This document shows positions 3,978 through 63,000 of a stretch of DNA of 64,000 nucleotides, piece by piece. Below the pieces are notes generated by a model. The model ran no database searches, was not told the origin of the DNA, and was given only the letters and a program-made list of their open reading frames with translations. The DNA is from Patescibacteria group bacterium (GTDB lineage Bacteria > Patescibacteriota > JABMPQ01 > JAHIRA01). Numbering within the stretch: the first letter of the stretch is position 1; every line of letters begins with the position of its first letter. The translations under genes and the position numbers were made by a program. Where the stretch lies: positions 41,817 to 105,816 of the forward strand of contig JAHISJ010000006.1 of assembly GCA_018818205.1 (NCBI GenBank), given 5' to 3'.

Positions 3978-4658
3978 ATGTCAAAAAGAGGTAAGAAGTA
4001 TACAGAGGCGCAAGAATTAATAGGTGCAGATGAGTATTCGTTAGCAGATGCCGTTGATAAAGTTATTGAGACATCCAAAACATCGTTTGACTCATCGGTT
4101 GAATTACATATGGCACTTGGGATTGATCCATCAAAAGGAGATCAACTAGTGAGAGGCACAGTTACCCTTCCGCATGGTACGGGTAAAAAGCTTAGAATAG
4201 CCGCGTTCGTGCCGCAAGACAAAGTAAAAGAGGCAGAAGATGCGGGCGCAGCACTTGTTGGCTCTGAAGAGCTTATTGACAAGATTCAAAAGTCCGGGAA
4301 GTGTGATTTTGATATTGCTGTCGCAACCCCTGATATGATGCGCTTTCTTGGTAAGGTTGCTAAGATTTTAGGACCAAAAGGACTTATGCCTAACCCAAAA
4401 AATGAGACGGTGACGCCGGATCCAGCAAATGTGATTAAAGAGCTTTCTCAAGGTAAAGTCAGTTTTAGAAACGATGACGGAGGCAATATGCACCAGGTCA
4501 TTGGTAAAGTTTCGTTTGGGAAAGACGCACTGCTTGAAAATGCCGAAGCCTATCTTGCTATTATCAAAAAAAACAAACCGTCTTCATCTAAGGGAGTCTT
4601 TTTAAAGAAGGTAGTTCTTTGCTCTTCAATGGGGCCTTCTGTTCGAGTTAAGATCTAA
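3978..4658 (+). CDS. rplA: 50S ribosomal protein L1
   Basis: MSKRGKKYTEAQELIG...typical L1; ORF track start 3846 gives non-homologous N-extension, ATG at 3978 chosen. Confidence 0.9.
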   Translation: MSKRGKKYTEAQELIGADEYSLADAVDKVIETSKTSFDSSVELHMALGIDPSKGDQLVRGTVTLPHGTGKKLRIAAFVPQDKVKEAEDAGAALVGSEELIDKIQKSGKCDFDIAVATPDMMRFLGKVAKILGPKGLMPNPKNETVTPDPANVIKELSQGKVSFRNDDGGNMHQVIGKVSFGKDALLENAEAYLAIIKKNKPSSSKGVFLKKVVLCSSMGPSVRVKI

Positions 4659-4663
4659 TCTCT

Positions 4664-5098
4664 ATGCTTTCAAACGGAAAACTCAAGATTAAGCAGCTTA
4701 TAGAAGATGCAATGATTCCGACATACAATCATGACACTGATGCCGGACTTGATTTGTATAGCTGCGAAGATACGTTAGTTGCGCCAGGTGAGCGTAGAGC
4801 GGTAGGTACGGGCATTTCTGTTGCATTGCCCAGAGGTCACGTAGGGCTTGTCTGGGATAGATCCGGCCTGGCATTAAAACAAGGACTCACCACATTTGGT
4901 GGAGTGATTGACGAGGGGTATCGGGGAGAAATTAAAGTGATTTTGTATAATACTACGTCTCAGTACGTAGAAATAAAAAAACACGACAGGATTGCACAAT
5001 TGCTTCTGCAGCGCGTTGAAAAACCAAAAATAGAGATTGTCAATTATCTTGCAGATTCCGATCGGGGAGAGAAGGGATTTGGTTCAAGCGGCAAGTAG
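4664..5098 (+). CDS. dut: dUTP diphosphatase
   Basis: 144 aa; dUTPase motifs AGLDLYS, GxGISVALPRGHVGLVWDRSG, GVIDEGYRGEIKVIL. Confidence 0.9.
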   Translation: MLSNGKLKIKQLIEDAMIPTYNHDTDAGLDLYSCEDTLVAPGERRAVGTGISVALPRGHVGLVWDRSGLALKQGLTTFGGVIDEGYRGEIKVILYNTTSQYVEIKKHDRIAQLLLQRVEKPKIEIVNYLADSDRGEKGFGSSGK

Positions 5099-5165
5099 TT
5101 TTTTTGCGTATACTTCGTTTGATTGGTATACTAAAGAAAAGAATAACTATACTAAATAAAACAAA

Positions 5166-8165: not shown

Positions 8166-11003
8166 ATGAAGAAACATCGAGTTAAAGCGCTTGTCGCGCT
8201 TGTTCTTGCAGGGGTTATGTCCTTTGCAACCTATTACTATGTGGTTCCAAATCAACCACAGGATTTAGATTTGAGTGCAAAAGAGGCTGAGGCACTCACG
8301 CAAAATTGGGATCAAGTGTCCCCAGTGGGAATTAATGCAAATGCAGCAAATATTGGTAAAGCCACAGATACTTTAACGGCTTCCGGAAGCTATCTTTATG
8401 CTACTGCAAGAAGGACCGATCCGATATTGCCATCACTTTGGCGATACGAATATGTTAATAGTCAAAATTCATGGACACAGATTACTGAGGATGCCTGTGG
8501 TGCTTCTGCTGAAGCAGAATATTTTACTGCATCGGTTGATTTTGAAGGTGATTACGTTGCAGCAGTTTTTGATGAAACAAATGGTGCTTCCGTTGTTAAA
8601 ATAAACAATGGGCAAGTAGGCTGTACTGCAGCAAATAAGTTGGGTACAACGGGGCTTGGGTATGGAAGTGACCTTTCAAACATTACTGACTTGTTTGTGC
8701 TCGAAGGTACTCTGTATGCCTTTGGTACTTTTGATACAGGTCATTCAGGAGCAGTCTTGCTTCAATATAACGAAGGATCAGGTACATGGTCGCATGTTGC
8801 ATCTCGTGAGGATGGACAGTTTGGCGCGACAACTACTGATTCTCAGCGGTGTGATGTTTCTGAAAGTCGAGCATACTGTACTTTTATGGGTAGCTCAGGT
8901 ATCCAGTTTTATACTGCAAGTGTAGGGAATATGCAAACTTGGGAGCAGCTAGGTCCACAAGGAAATAAAGATGGGTTTGGTGATCCGGGTAATGTACTTG
9001 CATGGGGGGTTGCTTTCACCTACGGGAAAGTATACGTTGGAACATCCCATCCTACAGGTGGGCAGCTTTGGCAGTATGTTGAAGGAAGTGCACATGACTC
9101 AATGAAGCAGATAAATCAGAATGGCTTTGGATCAGCAAATAACCAACATGTATGGGATATTGCAGAGCTGAATGGATACGTGTGGGCGACGGTATTTGAT
9201 ACCAATAGGAAGGCAAGCGTGTATCGTCTACAAGATCCGGATGCGAAAACTTGGGAATTGGCAAATATGCAAGGAGGGAGTTTTAAAGCAACAAATGAAC
9301 CTGTAATTGCGCTTACAAATTACAACAACAATATGTATGCGCTTGGGTATGACTATGATGGAGCTACAGACAGTTATATACAGGCGTATCGTTTTAAAGA
9401 CTATACCAAGCCTGAAGTATCAAACCGTGATCCCATGCCTTTATCTGGAGCAATCGTTGCACGTCCGGAAATGAAGTTTACCACAACTGATGATGAAACG
9501 GGAAACGATGTTGGAACTATTGCGGTAACTGTTACTGGTCAAACGAGTGGACAGCATGCTAATTTAACGATTGGCAAAACGCTTGCATCTGCTACTGAGA
9601 CAAACGCGCGAGTGTACAACTGGACTGTTCAATCGGACAAGGATTTTGCTTCAAGTGAGTTTGTCACTATTGATGTAACGATTTGTGACCGGTTTGTGTT
9701 GCAAAATTGTACAACCGATTCATGGGACTTTAGAGCACTTGCTATAGTTCCTGGTGGTCCAGGTGGTATTCTCAGGTTCAAAGCCCCAAGTGGTGTATGG
9801 CAAAATGACGACAAAACATATCAAGCTAAGGGAATGGTGCAGGTTGGTGTATTAGATGTGAGTGGCATCAAACAGGTCAGGTACACAGTTGATGGCTCAA
9901 ATCCAAATCAAAATTCAAAAGAACTTAAGAAGTGTGAGACGCTGTCATTTGTTAAGGATACTGTACTTAAGTATATTACGATTGATGACAGCGGAAACGT
10001 ATCTGAAGTATACTCGGTAAATATTCTTCTTCCAACGTCTACGGCAAATAAAACTCCCTTCATAGCAACAGCCCCCGGTAAAACAGGTGGTCCTGATGTC
10101 AAAGTATTTGACAAGAATGGAAATATGCAAGCTGAGTGGAATGCATTTGCCAAGGACTTACGCTGTGGTGCACGAGTAACTACCGGTGACATAAACGGTG
10201 ACGGTACTGATGAAGTCATTGTTGGATCCGGTGAAGGATGTACATCTCACGTGAGAGTATTCTCACCAAACGGTGTCGCAAAGCCTATTGATTACTTTCC
10301 GTTTGGCACTGACTCACGTACCGGTGCGGATGTTGCCGCAGGTGATGTTGACGGTGATGGTAAAGATGAAATTGCTATGATGCAATTTAGAAACGGTGAG
10401 ACTTGGGTAAAGGTGTATCGTTACAACAATCCTAGAGACATTGTTGGTGAGTGGCGAGCATACGAGGCTGGACAAGAATTTGGTGGAACTGTAGCTATGG
10501 GTGACTTTGACTACGATGGTAAAGCAGAGGTAGTAACCGGTGCCGGACCATCAGGCGATCCTCATATACGAATGTTTGAAGCAGACGGAGCGTTTAAAGG
10601 TGATCTCTACGCATTCCCACATTATGGTCTTGGATGGGAGCGTGAGGATGTCAGACGCGGCATAGACGTTTCAGCAGGCGACACTGATTTTGATGGTAAA
10701 GATGAAATTATGGCAACCGTTGCTGAAGGCGCACAAGCATACATGAAGGTCTACAGATGGAACAAGAGACGAAACATCATCATGGAAAACAAAGCATATG
10801 ACGCGCATGTTGGTACCAATGGATCACTCGGCGACGTTGACCAAGATGGATTTGCTGAGGCAGTCTCAGGTCCCGGATTTGGCGGCGGCCCTCAGGTGAG
10901 AGCGTTTGAAATGAACAAAGAACCTATAGAAAACACCGACTTCTTTGCCTACCTGAAATCATTCAGAGGTGGTACGGACATAGAGGTTGGGTATAGAAAG
11001 TAA
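8166..11003 (+). CDS. large secreted protein with C-terminal FG-GAP/VCBS-type beta-propeller repeats
   Basis: 945 aa; N-terminal signal peptide (KALVALVLAGVMSFA); >=5 repeats of GD(I/V/F/T)(N/D)GDG(T/K)DE(V/I) with intervening FG-like segments typical of FG-GAP repeats. Confidence 0.7.
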   Translation: MKKHRVKALVALVLAGVMSFATYYYVVPNQPQDLDLSAKEAEALTQNWDQVSPVGINANAANIGKATDTLTASGSYLYATARRTDPILPSLWRYEYVNSQNSWTQITEDACGASAEAEYFTASVDFEGDYVAAVFDETNGASVVKINNGQVGCTAANKLGTTGLGYGSDLSNITDLFVLEGTLYAFGTFDTGHSGAVLLQYNEGSGTWSHVASREDGQFGATTTDSQRCDVSESRAYCTFMGSSGIQFYTASVGNMQTWEQLGPQGNKDGFGDPGNVLAWGVAFTYGKVYVGTSHPTGGQLWQYVEGSAHDSMKQINQNGFGSANNQHVWDIAELNGYVWATVFDTNRKASVYRLQDPDAKTWELANMQGGSFKATNEPVIALTNYNNNMYALGYDYDGATDSYIQAYRFKDYTKPEVSNRDPMPLSGAIVARPEMKFTTTDDETGNDVGTIAVTVTGQTSGQHANLTIGKTLASATETNARVYNWTVQSDKDFASSEFVTIDVTICDRFVLQNCTTDSWDFRALAIVPGGPGGILRFKAPSGVWQNDDKTYQAKGMVQVGVLDVSGIKQVRYTVDGSNPNQNSKELKKCETLSFVKDTVLKYITIDDSGNVSEVYSVNILLPTSTANKTPFIATAPGKTGGPDVKVFDKNGNMQAEWNAFAKDLRCGARVTTGDINGDGTDEVIVGSGEGCTSHVRVFSPNGVAKPIDYFPFGTDSRTGADVAAGDVDGDGKDEIAMMQFRNGETWVKVYRYNNPRDIVGEWRAYEAGQEFGGTVAMGDFDYDGKAEVVTGAGPSGDPHIRMFEADGAFKGDLYAFPHYGLGWEREDVRRGIDVSAGDTDFDGKDEIMATVAEGAQAYMKVYRWNKRRNIIMENKAYDAHVGTNGSLGDVDQDGFAEAVSGPGFGGGPQVRAFEMNKEPIENTDFFAYLKSFRGGTDIEVGYRK

Positions 11004-11009
11004 ACAGTA

Positions 11010-11092
11010 GGGGCGCCCCTTGTGGGCGCCCATCTAATAATTGTATCGCATTCAATACGGGCGCCCACAAGGGGCGCCCGTACGTTTTTTTT
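11010..11092 (+). terminator. GC-rich 21-22 bp palindromic hairpin + T8 run (terminator / REP-like element)
   Basis: arms GGGGCGCCCCTTGTGGGCGCCC (11010-11031) and GGGCGCCCACAAGGGGCGCCC (11059-11079), 27-nt loop, followed by TTTTTTTT; between convergent genes. Confidence 0.55.
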
Positions 11093-14847: not shown

Positions 14848-16059
14848 TTATGAAATAACGTTCAATTCTTTACCGACCTTCTCAAATGCGGCAATACCGG
14901 TGTCTAAGTCTTCTTTGGTATGCGATGCGGAAGGCATGACTCGGATTCGTGCGGTTCCTTTTGGTACCATAGGAAACTTAATGGCCGTTGCGTATATGTT
15001 GTTTTCAAAGAGTTTAGTGCTAAAATCCTTTGCGGTGTTTTCATCACCAATCATGACGGGGGTAATAGGGCTTTCGCTTTTACCGGTGTCAAACCCAAGG
15101 GCCTTAAGCTCTTTTTTGAGATACTCAGCATTTTCCCACAGTTTTTTCACTAGTTCGTCCGACTCTTCCAAAGTGTTTACTGATGCAATAAGTGCAGCTG
15201 CATCAGGAACTGAGAGGCCGTTTGAGAAAAGAAACTGTCGTCCTTTTTGGCGGTAATACTCAATTAACTCTTTTTTCCCGGTAATAAATCCACCCATAAC
15301 GCCAAATGCTTTTGACATAGTGCCAACTTCAATATCTACTTCACCATCGAGGTTAAAATGGTTAACAATACCGCGACCATGATCACCTAAAACTCCCTCG
15401 CCATGAGCGTCATCTACCATCGTAAATGCATCGTACTTTTTGGCGAGCTCGACTATGTGTGGCAGGGGAGCAAGGTCACCGTCCATAGAAAAAACTCCAT
15501 CAGTAATAATGAGGATTCTCTTTTGACCACCATCTGACCGTAATTCCTTTTGAGCTTCTTTTGCTTCTTCTAGCCTTTTAGAGAGATCATCCATATTTGC
15601 ATGAGCATAGATGAACTTTGTTTTAACTCCTGAAAGTCGTACACCATCAATGATTGATGCATGGTTGAGCTCGTCAGAAATAACAATATCTTCTTTACCA
15701 ATGATGGTTTGTATTGCACAAAGATTAGCCATGTAGCCGCCGGTAAGGGCAAGAGCTGCCTCAGCGTGTTTAAAGTGTGCAAGCTTCTCTTCCAGTTCAA
15801 TATGAAGAGCGTTTGTACCGGAGAGTGCTCGTACTGAACCGGTACCAACACCGTATTTTTCTACCGCTTCTAGCACTGCCTTTTTTAAATTGTCATGTGC
15901 AGCAAGCCCGAGGTAATTATTTGAACAGAGATTAAGCTTTTTCTCTCCATCAATAGTAAGCCATGCACCCTGGCTCGACTCGATAACTTTAATGGTGTTA
16001 AAGAGTCCGTCTTCTTTCATTTGCTCTATTTCTTGAGCAAACACGTGGTATTTATCCAT
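14848..16059 (-). CDS. kbl: 2-amino-3-ketobutyrate CoA ligase (glycine C-acetyltransferase), class-II aminotransferase
   Basis: [11 protein letters not shown]...[12 protein letters not shown]...TMSKAFG (PLP lysine) typical of Kbl/BioF family; adjacent to tdh; start set to ATG 16059 (MDKYHV...) because the upstream 49 codons of the ORF-track call run through a MITE-like repeat. Confidence 0.8.
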
Positions 16060-16094: not shown

Positions 16095-16201
16095 TGTCAT
16101 CCCGGACAGTCTTTCCTGAGACTGATTCGGGATCTCCTTGCTTACAGACTAAACCACACGATTCCGGATAGTCACTTAAGAAAGTGGATTCCGGGATGAC
16201 A
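16095..16201. mobile_element. MITE-like element copy 1 (107 bp, perfect 12-bp TIRs TGTCATCCCGGA/TCCGGGATGACA)
   Basis: terminal inverted repeats plus internal hairpin modules (CAGTCTTTCCTGAGACTG; CACTTAAGAAAGTG) and a central module TTCGGGATCTCCTTGCTTACAGACT shared with copy at 47225-47333; located in the tdh-kbl intergenic region. Confidence 0.6.
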
Positions 16202-16221: not shown

Positions 16222-17238
16222 TTACGGCGTAAGAATTATTTTACCTGCTTCACCACTCTTCATAATCTCCATAGCTTTTTCAAATTCCTCGAGTTTAAGT
16301 TCATGTGTGATAATTTTACCTAGATCCACTTTTTTGGAAAGCAGAAGATCAGAGGTTCTGTGCCACGTGTCCCAAATCATGCGACCAAAAATGCTCTTTA
16401 TGGTGAGCTCTTTATTAATCATATACTTACCCCAATCAATACATATTTTTTCCTTTGGGATACCAAAAGCTATGATTGTACCGCACAGCCTTGCAGCCTC
16501 AAACGCTTCTTCTGTTGCTTGCTTGTTTCCTGACATTTCAAGGACAATATCAAATGACCCCAATCTCTCCTTGGAAACAGCATCAAATGTTTCATCACAC
16601 CCCATTTCTTTTCCGAGGTTTTGTCTAAATTTGCTGGGGTCAATGCCGGTTACCACATGAGCACCGTATGCTTTGGCAACTGCAGCAGCACACAGTCCTG
16701 TTGGGCCAAGCCCATATATCAAGACTCGTTTTCCGGGAACGTTAGCAGTGGTAACAACATTAACCGCATTTCCGAGTGGTTCTTGTACGCTCATTTGGTC
16801 TACGGGGATCGTGGGGTCGTTTTTCCAGGTTGTTGCAATGGGGAGTGTTGCGTATTCGGCAAATGCACCATCTCTGCTGATACCAAAGAGTTTCATATTT
16901 TCACAAATATGCGCATTGCCGACGCCACATTGATAGCATTGCCCGCAATAAATATGTGTTTCTGAAGATACGAGATCACCTATTTTAAGGTCTCTTGGGT
17001 CATCAGAATTTATTTCCAGTATTTCTCCTACAACTTCATGACCAATCACAATTGGCGGTGTAATATGTCCCTTTGCCCAGTCACCCCAGTCGTAAATACC
17101 AATATCGGTACCACAGATGGATGCCTTAATGACTTTAATAAGTACTTCGTCTTTTTTGGCCTCAGGAACGGGAACATCTGTGATAGAAACACCTGGTTCA
17201 GGTTTGTTTTTTACCACAGCTCGCATTGTGTCTTTCAT
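16222..17238 (-). CDS. tdh: L-threonine 3-dehydrogenase (zinc-dependent MDR alcohol dehydrogenase family)
   Basis: 338 aa; GHEVVGEI and CGTDIGIY Zn-ADH motifs, NAD GxGxxG (GLGPTGL); operonic with kbl (threonine -> glycine + acetyl-CoA). Confidence 0.8.
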   Translation of the reverse strand: MKDTMRAVVKNKPEPGVSITDVPVPEAKKDEVLIKVIKASICGTDIGIYDWGDWAKGHITPPIVIGHEVVGEILEINSDDPRDLKIGDLVSSETHIYCGQCYQCGVGNAHICENMKLFGISRDGAFAEYATLPIATTWKNDPTIPVDQMSVQEPLGNAVNVVTTANVPGKRVLIYGLGPTGLCAAAVAKAYGAHVVTGIDPSKFRQNLGKEMGCDETFDAVSKERLGSFDIVLEMSGNKQATEEAFEAARLCGTIIAFGIPKEKICIDWGKYMINKELTIKSIFGRMIWDTWHRTSDLLLSKKVDLGKIITHELKLEEFEKAMEIMKSGEAGKIILTP

Positions 17239-22633: not shown

Positions 22634-22793
22634 TCTTCAAAATCTCTCCTCCCTCTTTTTTTAGTTTTAAGGCCTCGGTTTCTTTTTAGCTTTGACGGTG
22701 TAATAGCAGAATATGAACATGGAGTGGACTTTTTAGTGTATGGAGGGAGGCACAGAGAAAAACTAAAAAAAGAGGGAGGAGAGATTTTGAAGA
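22634..22793. repeat. 160-bp element with perfect 35-bp terminal inverted repeats (MITE-like or long RNA stem) in thrS upstream region
   Basis: TCTTCAAAATCTCTCCTCCCTCTTTTTTTAGTTTT (22634-22668) is the exact reverse complement of 22759-22793; 90-nt spacer. Confidence 0.6.
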
Positions 22794-45760: not shown

Positions 45761-47212
45761 ATGCTTAAAGAATATAAAACAGTCAAAGAGATCACCGGAC
45801 CGCTCGTTATAGTTGAAGGCGTGTCTGACGTGAAATATGAGGAGCTCGTTGACATTGAGCTTCAAGACGGATCAAAAAGAAGAGGCCGGGTACTTGAGGT
45901 AGATGGGGACAAAGCGGTTATTCAGCTTTTTGAGGAAACCCGTGGTATTTCTGTAGAGGGTACTAAAGCAAAGTTTCTTGGTAAAACAATGGAGCTTCCC
46001 GTTTCTGAAGAGATGCTTGGCCGCGTTTTTGATGGTTCAGGAAGACCAAAAGATAAGGGACCAAAAATAATTCCTGAAAAGAAACTCGATATTAATGGTG
46101 CTCCGCTTAATCCGTATGCTCGTGATTATCCAAATGACTTTATTCAGACCGGTGTTTCAACCATTGATGGTATGAACACGTTGGTTCGTGGCCAAAAGCT
46201 TCCTATCTTTTCCGGTTCCGGACTTCCGCATGCAGAGCTTGCTGCAATGATTGCACGGCAAGCAAAGGTAACAAAACCGGGAGAAAAAGACGGTGACGGA
46301 GGAGAATTTGCAGTGGTGTTTGGTGCTATGGGAATTACCTTTGCTGAATCGGAATTCTTTATCAATGAATTTAGGAAAACAGGTGCTATTGAGCGCGCAA
46401 CTCTCTTTGTAAACTTGGCAGATGATCCGGTAGTTGAGCGAATCATTCTTCCTCGTCTTGCGCTTACTGCCGCTGAGTATCTTGCGTTTGAAAAGGGAAT
46501 GCACGTACTGGTTATTTTGACTGATCTCACCAATTACTGTGAGGCACTCAGAGAAGTGAGTGCGGCGCGTAAAGAGGTACCGGGAAGACGTGGATATCCT
46601 GGTTATTTGTATACTGATCTTGCTACGCTGTATGAGCGAGCTGGTCGTATTAAAGGAAAGCCGGGTTCGATTACGCAGATTCCTATTCTCTCCATGCCAG
46701 AAGATGATAAAACGCATCCAATCCCAGATCTTACCGGATATATTACTGAAGGACAGATTATGCTTTCTCGCGAACTGCACAATAAAGGCATTTTCCCTCC
46801 GATTGATGTGCTTCCATCTCTTTCTCGTCTAAAAGATAAGGGTATTGGTGAAGGAAAGACGAGAGAAGATCATTCCGGTGTGTTGAATCAGTTATTTGCT
46901 GCATATGCTCGGGGAAAAGATGCAAAAGAACTTGCCGTTATTCTTGGCGAGGCTGCACTTTCTGATGCAGACAAAAAATTTGCAAAATTTGCCGATGAAT
47001 TTGAGAATCGATTTGTCAGACAGAAATCAGATGAAGATAGATCAATTATCGAGACACTGACATTGGGCTGGGAGCTTATGTCAATTCTCCCAGAATCTGA
47101 GCTTAAGCGTGTAAAAGAAGAGCAGATAAAGAAGTATCTTCCGAGTGCTAAAAAAGAGGAAAAGAAGATAGAGAAGGTTGAGGAAGAAGAGAAAGAAAAG
47201 GAGCTCGTCTAG
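45761..47212 (+). CDS. ntpB: A/V-type ATPase subunit B
   Basis: 483 aa; regulatory B-subunit signature [18 protein letters not shown]-rich C-terminal tail. Confidence 0.95.
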
Positions 47213-47224
47213 AAGAATTTTTTA

Positions 47225-47333
47225 CTGTCATCCCGGAATTTCACTTCTGAGTGAAACATCCGGGATCTCGTGGCTTACAGACTGTAAGCGATAAGACTCC
47301 GGTTCAGTCTTAGGAAAGACTGTCCGGAATGAC
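47225..47333. mobile_element. MITE-like element copy 2 (109 bp; TIRs TGTCATCCCGGA / TCCGGAATGACA)
   Basis: same TIRs and central module CCGGGATCTCGTGGCTTACAGACT as copy 1, hairpin modules (CACTTCTGAGTG; CAGTCTTAGGAAAGACTG) in swapped positions; sits between ATPase B and D genes. Confidence 0.6.
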
Positions 47334-47351
47334 ACCTAACGCATTACTACC

Positions 47352-47969
47352 ATGGCTAAACTTAACGTCAATCCGACTCGCATGGAGCTTCTTAAGCTCA
47401 AAAAGCGAGCTAAGACAGCAACAAGGGGGCATAAGCTTCTCAAAGAAAAACGTGATGGGCTCATGAAGAGCTTCATGTCGATTATTAGAGAAGCAAAAGA
47501 TCTTCGCTCTACAGTTGAGCGTGATCTTGGCGAGGCGTTTAAGAATTTTATGTTTGCATCGGCATCAATGAAAACCGAGGCGCTTAACGAGTCGCTTGCT
47601 GTTCCTAGTCAAAAAATGAAACTTGAAGCGTCGACTAAGAACGTTATGAGTGTTAATATCCCTGAGTTTAAGTCGTCAGTTGAGGGTGATTTTGTGTGTT
47701 ACAGTTTAGCTTCTACAAGTGTAGAGCTTGATGGTTCGCTCAAAACATTTTCTCATGTGTTAAGTGATATTATTAGACTTGCCGAAATAGAGCACTCTGC
47801 GTATCTTTTGGCGTGTGAAATCGAAAAAACAAGAAGACGGGTAAATGCGCTTGAACATGTTATGATCCCGAATATGGAAGAAACGGTGAAGTATATCACC
47901 ATGAAGCTTTCTGAGCAAGAACGAGCAGCTATTACGAGCATTATGGCCATCAAAGATAGACTTGGTTAG
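47352..47969 (+). CDS. ntpD: A/V-type ATPase subunit D
   Basis: 205 aa; MAKLNVNPTRMELLKLKKR canonical subunit D N-terminus. Confidence 0.85.
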   Translation: MAKLNVNPTRMELLKLKKRAKTATRGHKLLKEKRDGLMKSFMSIIREAKDLRSTVERDLGEAFKNFMFASASMKTEALNESLAVPSQKMKLEASTKNVMSVNIPEFKSSVEGDFVCYSLASTSVELDGSLKTFSHVLSDIIRLAEIEHSAYLLACEIEKTRRRVNALEHVMIPNMEETVKYITMKLSEQERAAITSIMAIKDRLG

Positions 47970-56403: not shown

Positions 56404-58059
56404 TTACTTATTCTTAAGACATTTTATCATGTACGTTTCACGGAGGCGATATCCAATTTTTCGATAATAATTTCTGGCTCCAATCCCAGAAATAACCGTT
56501 ATTCTTGAGAGATTACATTCTTTATTTGTTATTTTTTCAGCTTCTGTGATGAGTAGTTTACCGTAGCCTACGTGTTGAGAAGCTCGTTTCTTTCTATCCG
56601 AGAATTCAAGCGTTTCTCCATAAGTATGCACTTCTCTAATAATCGATGCGTTTTTAAGTACTGGGATAAATACATCAAGGGAGGGGATCCTAAGCCTAAG
56701 GAGTGCAATAAGTTTATCTTTCTTAGTATCTTCAAAACTTAAAAATATTTCGGTACCGCCTGATGCGTTATAGTCTCTGCGGACCATTTTTATATTTTCT
56801 TTGATGATTTTTTCGTCACGTATTTCTCTACATCTAATGCACTGACATTTTGCATGCTCTGTTTCCATTTTTTGGTGTACGATTTGCCTGATATTTGACA
56901 GTTTATTTCCTCCAATAATGTCTGGAGCAGGTATGTCTCTTCCAAGTCGCATGATACGTACGTAAGGTGGGATTACTTTCTTAATATTCATAATAAGCTC
57001 AACGAGTTGAGCATTGGTGTACGGTGTGAACTTTTTCTCTCTATAGAGCTTTTCTAAGTCTGAATCGCGTGTTACAACACATGGATATATTTTGATAAGA
57101 TCAGGCTTAAAGTTGGGATTATTAAAAAGTGTTTCAAACATTTCAAGATCTCGTTTTATTGTTGATCCGTACAAATTTGGCATGAGGTGGTAGTTGATCT
57201 TAAGCCCTGCATCTTTGAGGAGCTTGGTTGCACGAATAGTCTCTTTAACACTATGGCCGCGCCTGTTTTTTTTAAGCACATCATCATAAATTGACTGAAC
57301 ACCAATTTCTACACGCGTTGCACCGAGCTCCCTAAACCATAGAATTTCCTTTTTGGTGATGTAATCGGGACGTGTTTCTAATGTTAGACCGATGATGCGA
57401 TTTTTGGCGGATTCGTTGCGTTTTTGGGCAGTCTGTAGAGACGCAAAATGTAGAGGCGCAAGATTTTGCGCCTCTACATTTTGCGCCTCTACAGACCCAT
57501 TCGCCGCGTCAAAACATCGTTTAATAAACCACGTTTGATACTTTTTTGGCAGGGTTGAGAACGTACCTCCCATGACAATAAGCTCAATTTTATTGGTGAG
57601 ATGACCGGTGATATTAAGTGCGTTGATTCTGGCTTGAACTTGTCTAAAGGGGTCAAATTCGGTGAGCACTGCGCGCATAACTGCAGGCTCATCAGAAAAA
57701 TAGCTTTTGGGCATACCTTTTTCTGTTGGACAGTAAAGGCAGTTTCCAGGGCATGGCCATGGTTTTGTCAGTACGGCAATTGAGGCAATGCCAGAGAGTG
57801 TACGTGTTTTTTGTTTTTGAAGAACCTTAAAGAGTTTTTTATCTGGTGCTATTTCTTTTTTTTCGAGCAATTCTCTGTACGCTGCAAGCAGTTCAATATT
57901 AGAAAAGCAGGGCATACTGTGTTTTTCAGCATATTCCCTTTTGCGTTTTTCAAAAAGCTTTGTCGTGGTATGATTACCCGTGGACACGTCTCTAATAAAA
58001 TGTTTGGCATGTTTTGACATGGCTGTATTTAACCATTTGTGATCAATTTTTACAAGCAT
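56404..58059 (-). CDS. Elp3-like radical-SAM/GNAT tRNA-modifying enzyme
   Basis: 551 aa; radical-SAM CxxxxCxxC (CPGNCLYCPTEKG), HAT/GNAT C-terminal domain (QHVGYGKLLITEAEKI). Confidence 0.8.
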   Translation of the reverse strand: MLVKIDHKWLNTAMSKHAKHFIRDVSTGNHTTTKLFEKRKREYAEKHSMPCFSNIELLAAYRELLEKKEIAPDKKLFKVLQKQKTRTLSGIASIAVLTKPWPCPGNCLYCPTEKGMPKSYFSDEPAVMRAVLTEFDPFRQVQARINALNITGHLTNKIELIVMGGTFSTLPKKYQTWFIKRCFDAANGSVEAQNVEAQNLAPLHFASLQTAQKRNESAKNRIIGLTLETRPDYITKKEILWFRELGATRVEIGVQSIYDDVLKKNRRGHSVKETIRATKLLKDAGLKINYHLMPNLYGSTIKRDLEMFETLFNNPNFKPDLIKIYPCVVTRDSDLEKLYREKKFTPYTNAQLVELIMNIKKVIPPYVRIMRLGRDIPAPDIIGGNKLSNIRQIVHQKMETEHAKCQCIRCREIRDEKIIKENIKMVRRDYNASGGTEIFLSFEDTKKDKLIALLRLRIPSLDVFIPVLKNASIIREVHTYGETLEFSDRKKRASQHVGYGKLLITEAEKITNKECNLSRITVISGIGARNYYRKIGYRLRETYMIKCLKNK

Positions 58060-62453: not shown

Positions 62454-62529
62454 GCCATCGTAGCTCAGTCGGTAGAGCGCATCCATGGTAAGGATGAGGT
62501 CACCGGTTCGATTCCGGTCGATGGCTCCA
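62454..62529 (+). tRNA. tRNA-Thr (anticodon GGU), CCA encoded
   Basis: cloverleaf: acceptor GCCATCG/CGATGGC, D-arm GCTC-AGTCGGTA-GAGC, anticodon stem CATCC/GGATG loop ATGGTAA, T-arm ACCGG-TTCGATT-CCGGT, 3' TCCA. Confidence 0.85.
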
Positions 62530-62574
62530 GTAATAGATGAGTGATTCGATATTATACTATTATTGCAGCAAAAA

Positions 62575-62619
62575 CGAGATCCCGGATATCCACTTAAGAA
62601 AGTGAATTCCAGGATGACA
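62575..62619. mobile_element. partial/rearranged copy 3 of the MITE-like element (right TIR TCCAGGATGACA + CACTTAAGAAAGTG hairpin + inverted central-module fragment)
   Basis: ACGAGATCCCGGATATCCACTTAAGAAAGTGAATTCCAGGATGACA matches right half of copy 1 and reverse complement of copy 2 central module; lacks left TIR. Confidence 0.45.
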
Positions 62620-62982
62620 GCTGGTTTTGGGGAAGAGGAAAAACATTCTAAAATCTTGCGTAGACCCCGGAGTGTAACTGAGTGGTACGTGAAAACAAGA
62701 GAATGGGCCCCCGCAAATTTCTGAATTTGTGGGGAAGAGGAGGAACACTATGGAAGTCGGAGTGGATCCCGTAGGCTTTGCGAAGGGATACACGCAGACT
62801 GGAATGATGGGCCCCCGAAAAGTTCCTACTTTTTGGGGAAGGGGAGAAACATCCTGGAAGCAGGAGTGTTGTATAAGAAAATGGAGGGGCCCCCGAGAAA
62901 TTCTGATTTCTTGGGGAAGAGGAGGAACACTATGTAAGTCGGAGCGGATCCCGAAGGCTTTGCGTAGGGATACGCGCAGACT
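62618..62982. repeat. degenerate tandem repeat array (~90-bp units alternating two subtypes; ~183-bp super-period) between tRNA-Thr and tRNA-Ser
   Basis: units beginning GGGCCCCCG...TTGGGGAAG(A/G)GGA(G/A)(G/A)AACA at 62705, 62809, 62888 plus diverged copy at ~62625; A-type units 62705-62800 and 62888-62982 ~88% identical. Confidence 0.6.
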
Positions 62983-63000
62983 TACATAGTGTTCCGACGA

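Follow-up and report, generated by a model that had tools for sequence, protein, structure and literature searches.

The window (the whole 64-kb stretch of Patescibacteria DNA that we analyzed) contains two operon spacers and one tRNA-gene spacer that carry copies of the same short repeat. The first lies between tdh (16222–17238, minus strand), which encodes a 338-aa L-threonine 3-dehydrogenase-like protein, and kbl (14848–16059, minus strand), which encodes a 403-aa 2-amino-3-ketobutyrate CoA ligase-like aminotransferase whose start is Met50 of a 452-aa open reading frame. The 107-bp element in this spacer (copy 1, 16095–16201, plus strand, taken as the canonical orientation) is located 20 nt past the tdh stop codon and 35 nt ahead of the true kbl ATG, and comprises a TGTC tail (16095–16098), arm A (16099–16133), a linker (16134–16160), arm B (16161–16197) and a GACA tail (16198–16201). 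The second spacer lies between the plus-strand genes for V-type ATPase subunits B (ntpB, 45761–47212) and D (ntpD, 47352–47969), where a 109-bp element (copy 2, 47226–47334, minus strand) is inverted relative to copy 1 and is located 13 nt past the ntpB stop codon and 17 nt ahead of the ntpD ATG; along the plus strand it presents arm B (47230–47266), a palindromic linker (47267–47295) and then arm A (47296–47330). Because the tdh–kbl operon is on the minus strand, its RNA reads arm B of copy 1 first, and the ntpB–ntpD RNA likewise reads arm B of copy 2 first. At the third locus, 41 nt downstream of the gene for tRNA-Thr(GGU) (62454–62529, plus strand) and within the 470-bp spacer that separates it from tRNA-Ser, there is a solitary arm B (copy 3, 62571–62619, plus strand), made up of a hairpin (62579–62615), the GACA tail and 8 nt of linker. 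Copy 3 is thereby one complete hairpin arm and not a random fragment, and solitary arms were found at other loci too.

These three loci had been claimed as copies of one repeat in an initial annotation of the sequence, and they are indeed copies, two of them full and one of them half. The coordinates given there stood for copy 1, were off by one for copy 2 and needed correction for the partial copy (to 62571–62619), and the statement that all copies sit in operon spacers holds for copies 1 and 2 and fails for copy 3. The reported perfect or near-perfect 12-bp inverted termini were recovered, with the termini of copy 1, TGTCATCCCGGA and TCCGGGATGACA, complementary at 12 of 12 positions and those of copy 2 at 11 of 12, as was the central module common to these two copies, which is visible as a 23-mer on the plus strand. 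When at most one mismatch was allowed, TGTCATCCCGGA occurred five times in the window, every time within the three loci, compared with 0.14 ± 0.35 occurrences expected from shuffles of the sequence, none of which (0 of 100) reached five. A copy count by profile search, a check that the annotation had suggested, was run on the whole 64 kb with an nhmmer profile built from four full copies (copies 1 and 2, together with two from metagenome contigs, L128 and L129), and it returned the three known loci (E = 6e-33, 1e-30 and 6e-10) and no match beyond them.

The element also affects how kbl is read. The first 49 codons of the 452-aa open reading frame read through copy 1, and the earlier proposal that they form an artefactual N-terminal extension agrees with the Kbl proteins of relatives, which are 399–404 aa long. 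Because homology to these proteins begins only after Met50, the true kbl start is the ATG at 16059–16057 on the minus strand. At the other operon we observed that V-ATPase subunit B is longer here (483 aa) than in relatives (462–475 aa), the extra C-terminal residues (window 47100–47212) forming a Lys/Glu-rich tail that ends 13 nt before copy 2.

Several other repeats were seen in the window. The tRNA-Thr/tRNA-Ser spacer holds a tandem array (62620–63000) whose first unit adjoins copy 3; its four units are spaced 102, 104 and 78 nt apart and are 79–89% identical. In each unit a GGGCCCCCG...GGGG hairpin precedes GAAGAGGAGGAACACTATG, which is Shine-Dalgarno-like plus an ATG. The last unit forms an inverted repeat of 29 nt whose end lies 5 nt short of tRNA-Ser. 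Copy 3 seems to have taken the place of the beginning of the first unit, and a comparison of the array with Rfam gave no match (best E 0.24). An unrelated palindromic doublet with a GTAG tail (11002–11088, AAACAGTAGGGGCGCCCCTTGTGGGCGCCC ... GGGCGCCCACAAGGGGCGCCCGTACGTTTT) resembles classic REP/REPIN elements. A perfect 35-nt inverted repeat (22634–22793, TCTTCAAAATCTCTCCTCCCTCTTTTTTTAGTTTT and its complement, with arms 90 nt apart) contains a Shine-Dalgarno-like GAGGGAGGAG and may point to an invertible segment or to a duplication of divergent 5′ regions. Finally, a 31-nt hairpin at 57431–57496 (GTCTGTAGAGACGCAAAATGTAGAGGCGCAA / TTGCGCC...) is 97% complementary, has a 4-nt loop and contains a repeated TGTAGAG motif.

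Orientation and two-arm structure of the element

On the plus strand the 23-nt centers of copies 1 and 2 are identical at 21 of 23 positions the same way round while the hairpins that flank them are exchanged, an arrangement that the initial annotation had attributed to recombination between the symmetric ends, with the core inverted or the hairpin modules exchanged. Comparison of the complete elements gave a simpler picture. Copy 1, read on the plus strand, aligns collinearly over its full length with copy 2 once the latter is reverse-complemented, the identity being 78.4% in the inverted alignment versus 71.9% in the same orientation, and 73.6% versus 65.6% when the termini are left out. All six pairwise comparisons of the four full copies agree on one set of orientations (plus for copy 1 and L129, minus for copy 2 and L128), and the profile scores are 102–115 bits in the correct orientation versus 24–36 bits in the wrong one (102–110 versus 33–36 bits for the two window copies). 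The central module seemed to point the same way in both copies because the center is itself a palindrome, CCGGGATCTC-nTn-GCTTACAG / CTGTAAGC-nAn-GAGATCCCGG, which is nearly intact in L128 and of which different halves have decayed in copies 1 and 2. Moreover, the variable positions of the module, (C/G)T(T/G), are half-specific markers of 3 nt (nTT/ATC on the arm-A side and, on the complementary strand, GTG/GTT on the arm-B side) that keep to the same arm, in collinear order, throughout the four full copies. As judged from these alignments, the swapped hairpins are an orientation artefact that needs no internal recombination, the full copies being simply inverted relative to each other, and we regard a rearrangement as extremely improbable.

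With the copies aligned in this way, all follow the plan 5′-TGTC-(ATCCCGGA – variable hairpin – TCCGGGAT)-linker-(ATCCCGGA – variable hairpin – TCCGGGAT)-GACA-3′, in which the sequence that had been taken for a 12-bp terminal inverted repeat (TIR) corresponds to an arm's foot together with an unpaired tail of 4 nt, TGTC or GACA, that is present in all copies. RNAalifold, applied to the five subfamily sequences, returned two arms and a linker and not a pairing of terminus with terminus. In this two-arm structure 97% of cells were paired and seven pairs had double changes, a result matched by none of 500 shuffles; an alternative cloverleaf had 95% of cells paired, with its inner stem at only 87.5%. 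In the hairpin top of arm B, six of eight pairs carried double changes among the five copies.

The same pairing was evident at the feet of the arms in elements from other genomes. Among CCGGA-type elements, a T at position 7 of the terminus was matched by an A in the adjacent internal motif in four of five cases, the single unmatched case being L115, and a T in the right internal motif was matched by an A in the right terminus in both of two. Among ten CTGGA-type elements, the variable position was Watson-Crick paired in 18 of 20 arms, versus only 2 of 10 terminus–terminus pairs and 3 of 10 inner pairs. The conserved pairing, on this covariation, is that of each terminus with the adjacent internal motif and not with the other terminus. 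Because the covariation falls within arms, each end is best described as an independently maintained hairpin, (TGTC)-ATCCCGGA...TCCGGGAT.

Insertion in the host lineage and occurrence across phyla

The corresponding spacers in relatives lack the element. In relatives with 77–85% identical NtpD and the same downstream genes, Pro_CA_2 and DUF2085 (L135–L140), the ntpB–ntpD spacer measures 21, 22 or 30 bp, versus 139 bp in the window, which corresponds to 13 + 109 + 17 and also to 30 + 109. In one of these relatives (L138, minus strand, ~3712; NtpD 77% identical) a related arm, TGTCATCCCGAACGAACGTGAGGGATCTCG, stands alone ~90 nt past the end of ntpD, and a sister hairpin family thus occurs near the same operon. 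For tdh–kbl, identity to the closest relatives reaches only about 68%; the spacer is 67 bp and free of the element in L126, is occupied by a cupin gene in L125, and in L124 is 207 bp long and filled by another kind of palindromic repeat (GTAGGGGCAGACC type; L124:4060–4170), which is similar to the doublet at 11002–11088 of the window. Filled and empty states were also seen at an orthologous locus between two co-directional genes of viral contigs, which is filled in L130, L131 and L133 and empty in L132. The exact insertion junctions could not be read from the empty sites, the spacers of the relatives being too diverged.

The initial annotation had described the repeat as a non-coding element inserted inside operons, and had named conserved operon-specific leaders as the alternative. 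Because the orthologous spacers of relatives are element-free (21–30 bp for ntpB–ntpD and 67 bp for tdh–kbl), the window elements are, by this comparison, lineage-specific insertions and not conserved operon leaders.

A scan of JGI metagenomes for the subfamily to which the window copies belong yielded only two further copies, L128:2916–3022 and L129:2718–2824, both from another organism. The L128 copy lies between convergent genes. On L129, a CPR-like contig, the truB open reading frame (2032–2742) enters the element by 25 nt, so that the element supplies the truB stop codon plus the last eight codons (CVIPDSLS). Orientation with respect to transcription is mixed, with arm B first in both window operons and arm A first in L129. 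The subfamily copies are 78–85% identical to one another, and the 78% identity between the two full window copies suggests that they are old insertions. The Tdh and NtpD proteins of the window are 100% identical to proteins listed by NCBI under a 'Patescibacteria group bacterium', and its sequence matches ENA contig k141_1439843 (125 kb). On these identities, and on the count within 64 kb of it, the host genome, a member of the Patescibacteria (CPR), appears to carry a low-copy, diverged subfamily.

The position of copies 1 and 2 raises the alternative that the element is a functional cis-acting RNA: an attenuator, a processing site or a barrier to 3′ exonucleases that sets how strongly tdh is expressed relative to kbl, and ntpB relative to ntpD. 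Folding of each copy, which the initial annotation had also suggested as a check, predicted strong structures (free energies from −42 to −52 kcal/mol, z-scores between −4.3 and −8.0), compensatory changes keep the hairpin tops, and the transcription of both full window copies with arm B first leaves room for a role at the RNA level. We detected no terminator and no U-tract on the transcribed strands of copies 1 and 2, so that read-through is expected, and no promoter signal on the transcribed strand of the window copies. However, the same spacers in the closest relatives do without the element, the subfamily is also found between convergent genes, beside a tRNA gene and, transcribed the other way round, over the truB stop codon, and the structure is symmetric on both strands. 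Nor does any Rfam family match: at the gathering score there was no match for the window or for 18 loci, and matches at E up to 10 were only chance-level. We consider such a cis-acting function very unlikely. A terminator, riboswitch or ribozyme was rejected on the missing U-tract of the transcribed strand and the lack of an Rfam match.

The window copies would instead be old passengers that are co-transcribed with their operons and predicted to fold, and that carry no terminator. If the copies alter mRNA stability, or shift the expression of neighboring cistrons relative to each other, this would be incidental, as it is with REP, BIME and ERIC sequences, and by analogy with REP elements an influence on mRNA decay is possible. 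Nothing at these loci suggests a new regulatory mechanism in the window.

The family had been presented as novel, a view at odds with the presence of the same termini and internal motifs at many loci across phyla; nor is it peculiar to this genome. Scanning one genome per species with the pattern TGTCATYCYGGA-N70-100-TCCRGRATGACA, which required both termini, identified at least 120 loci, of which about 67 were in Caulobacter, Caulobacteraceae or Caulobacterales, with several per genome. Among the matches listed were also elements from Hyphomonadaceae, Rhodomicrobium, a Rickettsiales MAG and Coxiellaceae, and from Parcubacteria, Komeilibacteria, another Patescibacteria MAG, Omnitrophota, Endomicrobia, Dehalococcoidia and a Bathyarchaeia bin; five viral contigs carry a superfamily element as well. 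The elements among the matches listed were 94–124 bp long, and in 104 of 128 unique elements the internal motifs CCGGGAy and rTCCCGG were both present at corresponding positions, although the internal CCGGGAT-type motifs lie outside the search pattern. At least ten more elements follow the same plan with a variant foot, CTGGA/GATAGAATC. A few matches without the architecture, such as that in Paenibacillus (L075), are probably due to chance. BLAST of the window and Caulobacter copies against plasmids gave no matches, and a literature search for the terminal sequence found only unrelated primers, the Bru-RS papers printing no sequence. The superfamily thus appears to span phyla, its shared plan reflecting homology or possibly convergence, and to be commonest in Caulobacter and other Alphaproteobacteria.

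Mobility and relationship to known repeats

A length of ~107 bp with no open reading frame, inverted termini of 12 bp that are perfect or near-perfect and begin TG...CA, and intergenic insertions missing from relatives are all features of a classical MITE, that is, a deletion derivative of an insertion sequence with a DDE transposase, moved by cut-and-paste through its 12-bp TIRs, and the initial annotation had called the element MITE-like. Such an element should be flanked by target-site duplications. We found no excess of direct repeats of 2–5 bp, at offsets of 0–3, flanking 117 superfamily copies, and no target-site duplication at the four full subfamily copies; past TGTCAT, only one or two degenerate bases (Y/R) continue the inverted repeat. 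In about 1 Mb of loci searched for a parent insertion sequence, no longer element with these termini, paired or solo and 0.4–6 kb apart, was found. Between closely spaced copies there was no transposase, the genes there being housekeeping genes (lepA, bioD/bioC/bioH), and a Pfam scan of the 137 nearest-neighbor ORFs revealed no recurrent transposase family and no RAYT. The existence of solitary arms and the covariation of each terminus with its adjacent internal motif, and not with the other terminus, likewise argue against a TIR-type MITE, which we consider unlikely. Together, the conserved pairing within the ends and the lack of target-site duplications shift the family from TIR transposons to hairpin repeats of the REP/REPIN/CIR-like kind.

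In the model that we propose, a putative trans-acting, hairpin-specific enzyme would have moved or copied the elements in the form of single-stranded DNA that folds into hairpins. Because target-site duplications are lacking, each end has a compensated hairpin and solitary arms exist, we suggest, tentatively, that movement may have been of the REP/REPIN–RAYT or IS200/IS605 style and not by a DDE transposase acting on TIRs. In a tblastn search restricted to the superfamily loci and using approximate IS200 TnpA and RAYT queries, there was a single match, in L085. This match (L085:4476–5095, Caulobacter sp. BE254) is an apparently frameshifted RAYT-like gene (HUH, 'PNHVHLI') flanked by its own 16-bp inverted repeat, GTGAGTGTGTGTCCCC / GGGGACACACACTCAC (region 4390–5165), which differs from the repeat described here and suggests that this genome, besides its many TGTCAT elements, has a separate REP–RAYT system. 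TTAC, the target tetranucleotide of IS608, directly precedes the terminus in two of five subfamily copies (copy 2 and L129) and in one Parcubacteria copy (L007:2459); it is absent from the other copies and the numbers are too small to tell it from chance, and we treated it as coincidence.

Among the closest known systems are the REP, BIME and REPIN sequences of E. coli and Pseudomonas, which are mobilized by RAYT/TnpA_REP HUH tyrosine transposases. Like them, the elements described here are inverted hairpin doublets with a short linker, accompanied by singlets; they have a conserved stem foot, an outer unpaired 4-nt tail, and hairpin tops that vary and yet are compensated; and they are extragenic, often inside operons and co-transcribed, without target-site duplication. 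Unlike them, they have a TGTC tail in place of the hallmark GTAG or GTGG, each arm is longer, at about 37 nt, and the two are unlike in sequence, and no cognate RAYT flanked by arms was found at the loci examined with approximate queries. The distribution also extends to CPR and to other phyla in which, to our knowledge, REP/RAYT systems have not been described. The PATEs derived from IS200/IS605 share the hairpin ends, the lack of target-site duplication and a presumed single-strand mobilization, but in IS200/IS605 the left and right hairpins share a strand instead of being inverted copies, and insertion is 3′ of a fixed tetranucleotide, TTAC preceding only two of five subfamily copies here.

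Two further groups of repeats share the size or the setting of the element. The Caulobacter CcrM-associated intergenic repeats (CIRs; Chen & Shapiro 2003) are described as ~110 bp long with two long inverted-repeat arms and a linker in the RNA model, and their mobility mechanism is given as unknown (PMC2229807). The likeness extends to their abundance in Caulobacter and related Alphaproteobacteria, their strictly intergenic location and the lack of pairing between 5′ and 3′ ends (PMC2229807). CIRs are defined there by conserved GANTC (CcrM) sites in hairpin loops (PMC2229807), whereas any GANTC at all occurs in only 14 of the 67 Caulobacter copies with TGTCAT termini; the other 53 have none, and in the three window copies 3, 1 and 0 sites were counted, always outside the loops. 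Bacterial MITEs found in operons, such as Chunjie of Geobacter (cited in PMC3184786) and the Correia/NEMIS or ERIC elements, are similarly small and non-coding with inverted termini; they form stable long stem-loops when transcribed, insert between co-transcribed genes without a terminator and may affect mRNA stability. They have target-site duplications (often TA) and pairing of terminus with terminus, unlike the elements described here.

On balance, the window copies are probably a selfish, non-coding hairpin doublet of ~107 bp, REP/REPIN/CIR-like in kind and carried as a co-transcribed passenger. Selfish hairpin repeats are already known as a kind, and the low-copy subfamily in this genome is a new member. 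Its practical consequence is for annotation: the element creates the false 49-codon extension of kbl, and gene calls in CPR genomes benefit when such repeats are masked. It is also conceivable, if rather doubtful, that the two-arm elements with TGTCATCCCGGA termini constitute an undescribed REPIN-like superfamily with a stem foot and tail that hardly vary, copied without target-site duplication by a putative hairpin-specific single-stranded-DNA enzyme and spanning Alphaproteobacteria, Patescibacteria/CPR, Omnitrophota, Endomicrobia and possibly archaea. We know of no such hairpin-copying system in CPR genomes, and an undescribed superfamily of this sort, if true, would reach even into these tiny genomes. 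The same foot sequence occurs in very distant phyla, and the mobilizing enzyme, if found, would explain a class of intergenic repeats that is common and at present poorly described.
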